A stretch of 4,828 bases of DNA from a virus (Duplodnaviria; Heunggongvirae; Uroviricota; Caudoviricetes). Positions 979-4,828 of the stretch are shown one piece after another. The stretch lies in IMG/VR virus record IMGVR_UViG_2547132270_000008. One strand, given 5' to 3'. The translations under genes were made by a program, and so were the position numbers. The notes beneath the pieces are model-generated. The model did not search any database and was not told the DNA's origin. It worked only from the letters and a program-made list of their open reading frames with translations. Every line of letters begins with the position of its first letter. Within the stretch, counting starts at the first letter, position 1.

Positions 979-1158
979 TTATTCTTGCTCTTTAGCCTTG
1001 CGTCGCTGGCGGCGTTTGATCTCGCCTTCTAATGCGGCTGTTACAAACTGCCCTGTACTTTCGCCGTCTTCTTTGACCTTATCCATGGCATCAACGATAT
1101 GGAGTGGGACACGTGCATCTATTCTTTTCGATTTTGCATTTACTGATTTCGTTGCCAT
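979..1158 (-). CDS. Ribbon-helix-helix (CopG/Arc/MetJ-like) DNA-binding protein, 59 aa; candidate repressor
   Basis: ATG at 1158-1156, TAA at 981-979. The track ORF starts at an upstream GTG (1236) that would lie inside the palindromic operator region, so I prefer the ATG. Sequence MATKSVNAKSKRIDARVPLHIVDAMDKVKEDGESTGQFVTAALEGEIKRRQRRKAKEQE has a short basic N-terminal strand (KRIDARVPL), two helices and a basic tail, the RHH pattern. Weak GGA about 9 nt upstream. Confidence 0.6.
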   Translation of the reverse strand: MATKSVNAKSKRIDARVPLHIVDAMDKVKEDGESTGQFVTAALEGEIKRRQRRKAKEQE

Positions 1159-1880: not shown

Positions 1881-2180
1881 ATGAGAACATATTTATCTGG
1901 CTTGACTGCCAGCGGTTATGCACACCCCAAAATTATCCCCGGCGCTATTTATTGGGATAAGAACGGCAACAGAGTAACAGTAAAATCGATAATGTTTGAC
2001 CGTGTGTATTTTATTCGTGATGGCTATTCATTTCATAGCTCGCTGAACGTGGAGATCTTTATTTGCAGATTCCGGCGGGAAATCCCGCCTTCCAGAAATA
2101 ACCATGTGTCATGTATGGATGTTGATAAAAAACTACAGGAACTGAAAAACATGATTGCCGCGTGGAGAGAGCAGAAATGA
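1881..2180 (+). CDS. Hypothetical 99-aa protein
   Basis: ATG 1881 (GGGG at 1867-1870). Stop TGA 2178-2180 overlaps the ATG 2177-2179 of the large replication gene (ATGA coupling). Contains a beta-rich-looking stretch YWDKNGNRVTVKSIMFDRVYFIRDGYSF. No family recognised. Confidence 0.55.
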   Translation: MRTYLSGLTASGYAHPKIIPGAIYWDKNGNRVTVKSIMFDRVYFIRDGYSFHSSLNVEIFICRFRREIPPSRNNHVSCMDVDKKLQELKNMIAAWREQK

Positions 2181-4300
2181 AAAAAGCGCCAAATTTAAAA
2201 CACCAGCCACGTGACAAAATGACGGAAGTCATCATTTTTGCGGGTAGTGATGCGTGGGCACATGCGAAGCAGTGGCAGGAACAGGACGGGCGACTGGCTG
2301 GCGATAACGTGCCTCCTGTCTGGCTTGGAGAGCAACAACTTGCCGAACTGGACAACCTGCAAATCGTACCGGACGGACGCTATCGCGTGCGTCTCTATCA
2401 GGCGGGGTTATTGCGTCCGGGGCTTGTTAATACCATCGGGCAGAAACTGGCAGCGGCAGGTGTCAGGGATGCTGATTATTACCCTGAAGGAATGCACAGC
2501 CAGAAACGGGAGAACTGGCGCGAATATCTGGAACGTGAACGGGCAGAGCAGGCGGAAAAGAAAAAGGTAGTTGAACTGCCTGTAAAGAAAAAAGAGCCAT
2601 GCTATCAGGATGATGAATTAAAGCCCCGCGTTGAAAGTCGCGTCGATGGTGTTTTCTGGGTAACGCCCAAAGTGGATAAGCAGTCAGGCGAAATTATCCG
2701 GCCTGAGACGTGGTTATGTTCTCCGCTTGAACTACTGGGAACGGGGACGATCGGTAAAGAGCATTACCGCGTGATGCGCTGGAAAAAATTAGCAAACCAT
2801 GAAGTCATCACAATGGCGATCCCGTGTGGTGGCATTGGCGACCGTGACGGCTGGCGGTTGCTTAAAGATCACGGGCTGAACGTGACAACAAACGGCAAAT
2901 ACAGGGCTATCCTGGCTGACTGGATGCAGTTAAGCGGAAGCCATGAGGAATGGCAGCTAAGCACAACAACGGGCTGGCATTTTGGCGCGTATATCATGCC
3001 GGACGGCTCAATCATTGGTGATTCTGAAAAACCGATCCTGTTTACCGGAAAAAGTGCCGCTGTTAATGGCTATTCGGTTGCGGGTACGGCGGAGGGCTGG
3101 CGCGACTGCGTGGCGCGGCTGGCTGGTGGCAATCCGTCCATGATGCTGGGTGTTGCCACGTCACTGGCAGCACCTTTGATTGGCCTTGTTGGTGCTGACG
3201 GCTTCGGGGTACATCTTTTCGAACAGTCATCGGCAGGGAAAACCACCACGCAGAACATCGCATCAAGTTTATGGGGAGAGCCGGACGCACAACGGCTGAC
3301 CTGGTACGGCACAGCGTTAGGTATCGCTAACGAGGCAGAGGCGCACAACGACGGGCTGTTACCCCTGGATGAAATAGGCCAGGCCGGAAACGCGCGGGAG
3401 GTGTCCACGTCAGCCTATACGTTGTTTAACGGTTCCGGGAAATTACAGGGGGCGAAGGACGGCGGCAACCGGGAGATAAAACACTGGCGCACGGTGGCAA
3501 TCAGCACCGGAGAAATGGACGTTGAGACATTCCTCAAAACGGAGGGGATAAAAGTCAAAGCGGGGCAGCTTGTCCGCCTGCTTAACGTTCCGATGGAAAA
3601 AGCCACGCACTTTCACGAATACAGCACCGGAAAGGCGCACGCAGACGCGTTAAAGGATGCCTGGACAGAAAATCACGGGGCAGCGGGTCGTGAGTGGGTT
3701 AAATGGCTGGCAGGCCACCAGCAGGAGGCAAAGGATACGGTAAGGGAATGCCGCGAACGGTGGCGCAACCTGATACCGGAGAGCTACGGCGAGCAGGTCC
3801 ACCGCGTGGGTGAGCGTTTCGCCATACTGGAGGCCGCGCTTGTGCTTTCCGGTCATGTAACTGGCTGGGCCGCGCAGGAATGCCGGGACGCAATACAGCA
3901 TAACTTTAATGCCTGGGTGAAGGAGTTCGGCACGGGTAACAGGGAATTTAAACAGATGGTTGAACAGGCTGAGGCGTTTTTGTCGTCGTTCGGGTTCAGT
4001 CGATACCTTCCTTACCCAAACAGTGATGAACGTGATTTACCGATTAAAGACCTTGCCGGATACAGAAAGGGGAGTATCAGAAATGAAGATGATGAGTTCC
4101 GTTTTTACACGTTTCCTCATGTGTTTGAGGGGGAGATCGCACAGGGATTTAACCCGTCCCACTTTGCCCGCGCGTTGAGTGCTGCCGGAATGCTGGAAGC
4201 GGGTAACGATCGCCGTTACAAGAAAAAGGCTCTCGGCAAAATTGGGGGGAAGCAGCATGTTTTTTACGTGCTGATGTTCCAGCCTGAGGCAGAAGATTAA
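2177..4300 (+). CDS. Replication initiator of the primase/helicase type found in P4-like satellites and PICIs (P-loop NTPase core; often annotated as DUF927 / P4-family primase), ~707 aa
   Basis: Long uninterrupted ORF. I place the start at ATG 2177 (GGAGAG at 2164-2169, 7 nt upstream; ATGA overlap with the preceding ORF) rather than the track GTG at 2162. Stop TAA 4298-4300. Walker A-like SSAGKTT (nt 3227-3247) and Walker B-like LLPLDE (nt 3356-3373) are in frame. Size, position downstream of alpA and adjacency to an iteron origin fit the family. The N-terminal stretch VIIFAGSDAWA resembles a Toprim strand but lacks the usual acidic residue, so primase activity is unproven. Confidence 0.8.
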   Translation: MKKAPNLKHQPRDKMTEVIIFAGSDAWAHAKQWQEQDGRLAGDNVPPVWLGEQQLAELDNLQIVPDGRYRVRLYQAGLLRPGLVNTIGQKLAAAGVRDADYYPEGMHSQKRENWREYLERERAEQAEKKKVVELPVKKKEPCYQDDELKPRVESRVDGVFWVTPKVDKQSGEIIRPETWLCSPLELLGTGTIGKEHYRVMRWKKLANHEVITMAIPCGGIGDRDGWRLLKDHGLNVTTNGKYRAILADWMQLSGSHEEWQLSTTTGWHFGAYIMPDGSIIGDSEKPILFTGKSAAVNGYSVAGTAEGWRDCVARLAGGNPSMMLGVATSLAAPLIGLVGADGFGVHLFEQSSAGKTTTQNIASSLWGEPDAQRLTWYGTALGIANEAEAHNDGLLPLDEIGQAGNAREVSTSAYTLFNGSGKLQGAKDGGNREIKHWRTVAISTGEMDVETFLKTEGIKVKAGQLVRLLNVPMEKATHFHEYSTGKAHADALKDAWTENHGAAGREWVKWLAGHQQEAKDTVRECRERWRNLIPESYGEQVHRVGERFAILEAALVLSGHVTGWAAQECRDAIQHNFNAWVKEFGTGNREFKQMVEQAEAFLSSFGFSRYLPYPNSDERDLPIKDLAGYRKGSIRNEDDEFRFYTFPHVFEGEIAQGFNPSHFARALSAAGMLEAGNDRRYKKKALGKIGGKQHVFYVLMFQPEAED

Positions 4301-4322
4301 CCCCCTGTGTGAGGTGAAAAGT

Positions 4323-4639
4323 TGCGGGTTATGCGGGTTACTCTGTGTATAAGTGCATTAACTGCATGAATAAAAAGGAAATCAATAACCCGCACGTAAC
4401 CCGCAAAACGGCAGTTATAACCCGCAAAAGTGCGATTATAACCCGCAGATGAATAACAGGAAGTGACAGCAAACAGCCACGCGTAACCCGCAGAAAAAAC
4501 CCCGTTTGCGGGTTATTTTGAGCATTTTGCGGGTTACGCCACGGCTAAACAGTAAACAGTTAATTTTGTAATGTATTGATATTAAGGAATAAAAAATACT
4601 TAGCAAGCGAAGATAACCCGCTAACCCGCATAACCCGCA
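4323..4639. repeat. Putative origin of replication: 12 copies of the 9-bp iteron TAACCCGCA (both orientations) flanking an AT-rich spacer
   Basis: Reverse-orientation TGCGGGTTA at 4323-4331, 4332-4340, 4507-4515, 4528-4536. Forward TAACCCGCA at 4386-4394, 4397-4405, 4418-4426, 4439-4447, 4484-4492, 4614-4622 (TAACCCGCt), 4622-4630, 4631-4639. Spacings of 9, 11, 21 and 21 bp recur. AT-rich spacer 4541-4612 contains tandem TAAACAG x2. The array begins 23 bp after the replication gene stop. Confidence 0.65.
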
Positions 4640-4678
4640 CTGTTTTGTATATATATACGAAAAATTGAGATCTGAACT

Positions 4679-4828
4679 ATGAAGGCAAACCGCAAACAAC
4701 CACACTACCGCGCTATTGACCTTACAGAGCACTGGCTGAGAGTGGCGATAAAAATCATCGACCGAAACACGGGGGAAGGATATGCAAAAGCACATCCCGA
4801 ACTGATAAGCGCATTCATGACAACGGCA
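4679..4828 (+). CDS. 5' part of a hypothetical protein gene; 3' end lies beyond the window
   Basis: ATG 4679, open for 50 codons to the window end (MKANRKQPHYRAIDLTEHWLRVAIKIIDRNTGEGYAKAHPELISAFMTTA). Absent from the supplied track because no stop is reached. Weak SD (GAGA 8 nt upstream). Preceded by the TG-TATATATA element at 4646-4655. Several rare codons (AGA, ATA, CGA, GGA). No family recognised. Confidence 0.35.
   Translation, partial: MKANRKQPHYRAIDLTEHWLRVAIKIIDRNTGEGYAKAHPELISAFMTTA

Follow-up and report, generated by a model that had tools for sequence, protein, structure and literature searches.

A probable iteron-type replication origin downstream of a DUF927 Rep gene in an E. coli PICI

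Described satellite origins and the island in the window

It has been reported that the origin of a phage-inducible chromosomal island (PICI) is the region immediately 3′ of the replication gene, with iterons on both sides of an AT-rich region, and that for EcCICFT073 a temperature-sensitive rep-ori plasmid was maintained only when both rep and ori were intact (both according to the available text of PMC6092414). The stretch analysed here, called the window, is 4,828 nucleotides of DNA from IMG/VR virus record IMGVR_UViG_2547132270_000008 (Caudoviricetes), and its origin-like region is an array of iterons at 4323–4639, directly after the replication gene. Read directly, the origin of EcCICFT073 has the same layout as that of the window. 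[quoted passage not shown] There are also differences: the Rep of EcCICFT073 has a D5-type core (annotated as a DNA primase family protein), whereas that of the window is DUF927; the iteron is GTCTACC in the former and TAACCCGCA in the latter; and the origin of EcCICFT073 has been functionally tested, whereas that of the window is known by sequence.

A closer likeness is found in EcCIEDL933, the prototype capsid-forming PICI (cf-PICI) from E. coli O157:H7, which, in the part of the literature available, is reported to replicate after helper-phage induction. Its Rep is 89% identical to that of the window, and its origin has 11 exact copies of TAACCCGCA in the same layout; the rep-ori of locus L008 is identical to that of strain EDL933 itself. 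EcCIEDL933 differs in its att site (roxA-phoQ), in possessing a full capsid and terminase module, and in the non-iteron positions of the origin, which are 23% diverged from those of the window. When the two alleles are compared column by column, 105/107 iteron columns are identical versus 184/238 of the other columns (p = 7e-8), that is to say, the iterons are selectively conserved between them.

The Rep of SaPIs is a hexameric helicase-initiator that loads itself and binds the iterons through a winged-helix domain at its C-terminus, and the origins consist of 6–12 iterons located just after rep, half of them on each side of an AT-rich centre and in opposed orientation (PMC9371898). The SaPIs (SaPIbov1, SaPI1 and SaPI5) and Cch are like the window in having a homologous core (8tch_A and 5dgk), and the SaPIs also in having iterons directly downstream of rep, but the SaPIs have Gram-positive hosts, iterons of 5–6 nt instead of 9, and one AT-rich region instead of two. 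In addition, the C-terminal domains of the SaPI and Cch proteins are without significant sequence similarity to that of the Rep in the window, and the N-terminal module is unrelated.

For phage P4, the alpha protein of this satellite replicon is said to be a multifunctional primase, helicase and origin-binding protein, and its C-terminal winged-helix domain reportedly binds octamer iterons. The helicase of P4 alpha is of the D5 type, the type I iteron is TGTTCACC, and the iterons that P4 requires are in two clusters, ori and crr, kilobases from each other. These two clusters resemble the left and right units of the array described below, and also the split arrangement of TUM1881, but in the window the two units are adjacent. 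Since the iteron of the window is TAACCCGCA and its protein is DUF927, the resemblance to P4 is one of mechanism and not of membership. As a separate observation, the octamer TGTTCACC occurs nine times after the D5-type rep of EcCIRM13514 (L006, 8054–8546).

The origin region of the window matches 296 of 5426 complete E. coli genomes and is always chromosomal. In strain AR_0077, the identical locus is an island of about 10 kb between cspD and clpS, with an order of integrase, AlpA-type regulator, Icd-like genes, DUF4222, DUF927 protein and repeat region, followed by a small gene, ssb, capsid-like, decoration-like, HTH and small-terminase-like genes. The gene coordinates in the window agree with the RefSeq annotation of this identical locus, and the AlpA, DUF4222 and DUF927 proteins in the window were confirmed with Pfam. 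The att core of the AR_0077 island is ATGATAGTTAT, as in EcCIIHE3034, and both this core and the gene order are those of the Gram-negative PICIs in the available text of Fillol-Salom et al. 2018, for example EcCIIHE3034 (PMC6092414). All the marks of a Gram-negative PICI are thus present, namely an integrase, AlpA, a rightward unidirectional operon, a PICI att site, a length of about 10 kb and packaging-hijack genes, and the island to which the window belongs can be placed among the E. coli PICIs with the cspD-clpS attachment site.

Some smaller features of the island can be added. Between alpA and the replication genes (608–1561), RefSeq annotates an Icd-like pseudogene, a YlcI/YnfO-family gene (979–1158, minus strand) and a second Icd-like gene; the C4/isrK immunity RNAs, which some PICIs are reported to have, were not matched in this segment with Rfam, and no Rfam match at E ≤ 0.1 was obtained anywhere in the window. 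The DUF4222 gene precedes rep in most of the E. coli PICIs examined, EcCIRM13514 being an exception. At the other end of the cspD-clpS islands, an att core of the EcCIDI14 type, GGTGTAGTTAATGGTGTAGTTAAT, sits within the 3′ end, to the left of the island's own core ATGATAGTTAT (about 16944–16968 and about 17029–17039 in L001; about 3895–3920 and about 3990 in L010), and a second island may be able to land there.

The array and its counterparts in relatives

With at most one mismatch allowed, the iteron TAACCCGCA has 12 sites in 4323–4639, 11 of them exact and one, TAACCCGCT at 4614, with a single mismatch. In dinucleotide shuffles of the window, such sites number 1.19 on average and 5 at most, and the only other site in the window, at 1586, is a lone one-mismatch copy unrelated to the array. 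The iterons start at 4323, 4332 (both minus), 4386, 4397, 4418 and 4439 (all plus) in the left part, and at 4484 (plus), 4507, 4528 (both minus), 4614, 4622 and 4631 (all plus) in the right part, so that the pattern of orientation is --+++++--+++ and the start-to-start spacings are 9, 54, 11, 21, 21, 45, 23, 21, 86, 8 and 9 bp. The first iteron lies 23 bp past the stop codon of the gene at 2177–4300.

The array is made of two origin-like units in tandem and not of one, and each of them has its inverted copies and its direct copies separated by an AT-rich spacer. The left unit begins with an inverted pair (4323–4340, minus strand), which is two abutting copies of TGCGGGTTA 9 bp apart; it is followed by an AT-rich spacer of 45 bp (4341–4385, GC 0.31) and by four direct iterons (4386–4447, plus strand) at 4386, 4397, 4418 and 4439, with spacings of 11, 21 and 21 bp. 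After a linker (4448–4483), the length of which differs among relatives, comes a fifth direct iteron (4484–4492, plus strand). The right unit has an inverted pair (4507–4536, minus strand) whose copies start at 4507 and 4528 with a spacing of 21 bp, then an AT-rich spacer of 77 bp (4537–4613, GC 0.31) with a 40-bp core at 4560–4599 whose GC is only 0.15, and finally three abutting direct iterons (4614–4639, plus strand), the first of which is the variant copy and overlaps the next by one base. The right spacer, 4537–4613, which contains islands of sequence conserved across five contexts, is the best candidate for the unwinding element. The next gene starts at 4679 (4679–4828 in the window, plus strand) and encodes an 80-aa phrog_1231 protein, with ssb after it in the full element; it lies beside the origin and does not form part of it.

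The initial annotation of this region had counted 12 copies of one 9-mer in both orientations within about 320 bp, and this count stands against about one site by chance. It had also described recurring spacings of 11 and 21 bp together with a single AT-rich spacer of roughly 70 bp: the 21-bp spacing does recur (three times), but the 11-bp spacing occurs only once, the abutting copies at 8–9 bp at the two ends had gone unmentioned, and there is an AT-rich spacer indeed, but there are two of them, of 45 and 77 bp. As to the comparison that it drew with the known origins of P4, SaPIs and PICIs, the part concerning PICIs and SaPIs holds, and the relevant family is the E. coli PICIs and cf-PICIs rather than P4.

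For comparison, 80 loci with relatives of the Rep were collected, one genome per species and nearly all from Enterobacterales, and in the 78 with enough downstream sequence the commonest 7-mer was counted in the 600 bp past the rep stop codon. The median count was 8, versus 3 in control windows. At least 8 copies were present in 43 of the 78 relatives, when the maximum in controls was 6; a threshold of at least 4 copies was reached by 73 of the 78, but it is not specific alone, because 7 and 15 of 78 control windows also reach it. In the other 5 of the 78, rep is not followed by any clear array. Among the arrays that were mapped in detail, the distance from the rep stop to the first iteron is 22–45 bp, and nearly always 22–32 bp.

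Where an array is present, its layout is kept almost to the base pair, while the iteron sequence differs by lineage. The orientation in relatives is --+++++--+++ or ---+++++-+++, and the spacings are 9, 54/66, 11, 21, 21, a variable linker, 21–22, 21, 54–94, 8–9 and 9 bp. Among them, the 11/21/21 series recurs across iteron classes, and an AT-rich gap of 45 or 57 bp, equivalent to the left spacer, is found in relatives of every iteron class. Examples of iterons by lineage are TAACCCGCA, TAACCCAC, TAACCCGT, TGAACCAAC, TGAACCGAC and TGAACCACG, and further TGAGACAAC, TGGGACAAC/G, TGGGATAAG, TGGTACAAC and TGACACACT. There is also a short form, consisting of the left unit only.

Sites for host factors were considered as well. 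One relaxed DnaA box lies in the left spacer (4344–4352, minus strand) and one match to the IHF consensus in the right spacer (4569–4581, minus strand), and such sites are found in 11 and 12 of 76 relatives, respectively; being present in few relatives, they are not a conserved feature and are probably not essential. Nor does the array appear to imitate the origin of a helper phage: apart from short satellite-derived records, the array or a close Rep is absent from phage records, the exception being one Klebsiella phage record with a Rep 64% identical.

The DUF927 Rep and its match to the iterons

The gene at 2177–4300 (plus strand) encodes a DUF927 protein of 707 aa (Pfam DUF927, E 2e-47), and the ORF is annotated likewise in RefSeq. 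DUF927 proteins have been documented as helicases in mobile elements. The protein matches the "Pathogenicity island protein" of PDB 8tch_A with E 4e-15 (1e-17 with a profile) and the SCCmec Cch helicase, PDB 5dgk, with E 1e-4 by profile, and 5dgk is also the only significant Foldseek match of its AlphaFold2 model (E 6e-8). It is therefore a helicase-initiator homologous to SaPI Rep and SCCmec Cch, and the earlier assignment of this gene as the replication gene beside the array is upheld.

Three parts can be distinguished in the Rep: residues 1 to about 125 form an N-terminal module, after which come the DUF927/AAA+ core and, at the C-terminus, the specificity segment. The full-length AlphaFold2 model has a mean pLDDT of 59 and is confident only in the N-terminal and core parts; the C-terminus stays below 50 in the full-length model and at 43 in a run of the domain only. 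When the profile of the C-terminal domain was searched against PDB, only chance matches were obtained, and the hint of a winged helix comes solely from a low-confidence extension of the alignment into the C-terminal region of Cch, where the domain has been described as a winged helix. Residues 1–118 (window 2177–2530) are 70–80% identical to the N-termini of the Reps of EcCICFT073, EcCI042 and EcCIRM13514, which have other helicase cores and the iterons GTCTACC, CCTCACTTT and TGTTCACC, respectively; since the N-terminal module is common to Reps with other iterons, it cannot set the iteron specificity. The model of this module is confident and has an alternating beta/alpha fold, for which no significant structural match was found.

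The relation between iteron class and Rep was studied in pairs of Reps matched in overall identity, with pairs of the same iteron class set against pairs of different classes. In residues 671–700, the identity is 0.81 for same-class pairs versus 0.45 for different-class pairs; the gap in the adjacent residues 656–685 is 0.23, and elsewhere in the Rep it is 0.00–0.14. The iteron class is predicted by the nearest neighbour in 61/65 cases from the C-terminal segment versus 47/65 from the core, and after core identity was regressed out, none of 2000 label shuffles (0/2000) reached the observed effect. Natural swaps are also present: the E. albertii Rep (L015) is 90–100% identical to that of the window up to about residue 585 and 22–51% beyond, and its iteron is TGGGACAAG; in other pairs the core identity is 93–97%, yet both the C-termini and the iterons differ.

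That the iteron class follows Rep residues of about 656–707, natural swaps included, supports recognition by the C-terminus. These residues, encoded at 4142–4297 (plus strand), are the segment whose sequence tracks the iteron class, and they are probably a recognition helix with a beta-hairpin wing. The initial annotation had assigned the binding of the repeats to the C-terminal domain of this protein and had proposed co-variation with the iteron as the check; the outcome of that check is strongly positive, and it speaks for the binding so assigned, judged by sequence comparison. The co-variation means that Rep and iteron are matched, and it says nothing of whether the matched sites are where replication starts.

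The matched pair of Rep and iteron and the origin layout are established here. The window has what characterises an origin of the PICI/SaPI type: the array is directly 3′ of rep, opposed iterons surround an AT-rich spacer twice over, the gene beside the array codes for a helicase-initiator of the SaPI Rep/Cch kind, and the iteron specificity appears, from the co-variation, to reside in the C-terminal domain of Rep. Very probably, then, 4323–4639 is the replication origin of an E. coli PICI, whose iterons are recognised by the last 50 or so residues of the upstream DUF927 Rep.

The function of this design has been shown by others in related elements, where the rep-ori of EcCICFT073 drives the replication of a plasmid and EcCIEDL933 replicates after induction, and in the window the process may be pictured as follows. 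A helper phage would induce the island, the AlpA-dependent operon would be expressed and the DUF927 Rep made, which is presumed to be an MCM/Cch-like hexameric helicase doubling as initiator. With its C-terminal 50 or so residues, this Rep would recognise the 9-bp iteron TAACCCGCA, presumably by direct binding, and Rep complexes would assemble on both sides of an AT-rich spacer, one or other of the two, and melt it. Rep would then load itself as a helicase and replication would start, as described for SaPI Reps, presumably with priming at this stage.

Another explanation of the repeats is that they are mainly transcriptional operators, by which Rep or another island protein autoregulates or controls the downstream gene and the ssb operon, while replication starts elsewhere. 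The array does lie between rep and the next co-oriented genes, where a bound protein would be in the path of read-through transcription, and the co-variation with the C-terminus is compatible with Rep as a repressor, too. But no sigma-70-like promoter was found in 4200–4828, and the array holds its place after the rep stop whichever gene comes next (a hypothetical gene here, ssb directly in TUM1881), and even where that gene is missing. AT-rich spacers with opposed iterons are features of an origin, and the same design is a functional origin in EcCICFT073 (in the available text of PMC6092414) and in SaPIs (PMC9371898). The role of operator is thus quite improbable, including the version raised by the initial annotation, in which the repeats would serve only the gene at 4679: the array follows rep whatever lies downstream. 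As for an intrinsic terminator, the hairpins of the array are terminator-like on the minus strand only and are built from the iterons themselves.

The preferred reading is accordingly that of an origin, with 4323–4639 annotated as such and 2177–4300 as its cognate initiator. The design was already known, and the locus is a sound but ordinary case of a PICI iteron origin with a DUF927 Rep. The iteron TAACCCGCA was not found described in searchable text, where full-text matches to the 9-mer were to unrelated papers, and the supplements of PMC6092414 contain no iteron text; a figure of that 2018 study may show it. A rule can be given for most PICIs of Enterobacterales with a DUF927 Rep, namely that the array about 25 bp past the rep stop, with its conserved layout, is the origin. 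Moreover, the comparative set amounts to a natural table of specificity, in which about 18 iteron classes are paired with short C-terminal variants, together with several near-isogenic domain swaps, and which could guide work on how initiators read DNA and on the compatibility of satellites within one cell. In this set, L018, L045/L061 and L022/L052 have near-isogenic Reps (93–97% in the core) that differ by a few residues of the predicted wing, and their iterons differ accordingly; for example, the difference of RKSPRI versus GRV-RE in the wing pairs with iteron TGAACCAAC versus TGAGACAAC.

The right unit outside the contiguous array

The right unit corresponds to 4504–4667 of the window, and other copies of it are found at L010 3482–3640, L011 3482–3645 and L014 16766–16920. 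Over the 5426 complete E. coli genomes, a rough count gives about 135 with the contiguous arrangement, 230 with the left unit and 296 with some part of the array; by subtraction, also rough, about 95 genomes have the left unit without an adjacent right unit and about 66 the right unit only. TUM1881 is a cf-PICI within a prophage terminase gene; its rep is followed by the left unit alone, and 8.4 kb separate this from the right unit, which is close to attR. Right units close to attR are also seen in ECONIH2 and ETEC1747, in PICIs that have D5-type or RepA-type Reps and their own iterons. Because the right unit is the sole match to the origin query in the genome of ECONIH2, no left unit is present there; the genome of ETEC1747 has a second match to the query besides the right unit. 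Stand-alone right units sit in a conserved block of 600–770 bp and have an inverted iteron in place of the direct copy at 4484; compared with the window, 44/44 of their iteron columns are identical versus 78–83% of the other columns.

Since the right unit is found without the left unit and without a cognate Rep, the units may have different roles. It is conceivable, though doubtful, that only one unit is the initiation site, the other being a crr-like enhancer, a second origin, or a site of copy control or incompatibility that titrates or handcuffs Rep. The split in TUM1881, the many relatives with only 5–6 iterons, the right units standing alone in PICIs with unrelated Reps and the full conservation of their iterons all accord with such a division, as does the need of P4 for two separated clusters, ori and crr. 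Across genera and iteron classes, however, the contiguous layout of 12 iterons is seen most often, and this points to a single functional unit. Each unit alone already shows opposed iterons with an AT-rich spacer between them, which is the minimal design in the literature (PMC9371898). The reading of the whole of 4323–4639 as the origin is therefore retained here.

The position of some stand-alone right units, near attR of PICIs that are without a lambda cosN, would also fit a packaging (cos/pac) or recombination site instead of a replication element. The element of the window, however, has a lambda-type cosN, GGGCGGCGACCT, 3 kb downstream of the array and beside the small-terminase-like gene, and therefore the repeats are not its packaging site. 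The iteron sequence, moreover, co-varies with the replication protein, and against recombination, the att cores differ in sequence from the array and have other positions. The array is thus extremely unlikely to serve in packaging or recombination, and it continues to be regarded as a replication element.

For the retention of the right unit in islands with other initiators, the possibilities are replication in trans, incompatibility, or a 3′ block that recombines. One can speculate, and it is rather unlikely, that the right unit is a portable origin or crr-like module, and that the islands carrying it are replicated in trans by a co-resident DUF927 Rep of the TAACCCGCA type or compete for it; if true, this would be a layer of parasitism or incompatibility between satellites. 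The stand-alone right units are the only part of these results that goes beyond what is described. A (TA)5 tract directly past the last iteron (4648–4657) is invariant in 5/5 right units that were aligned, among them the allele of EcCIEDL933, which is diverged in other respects.
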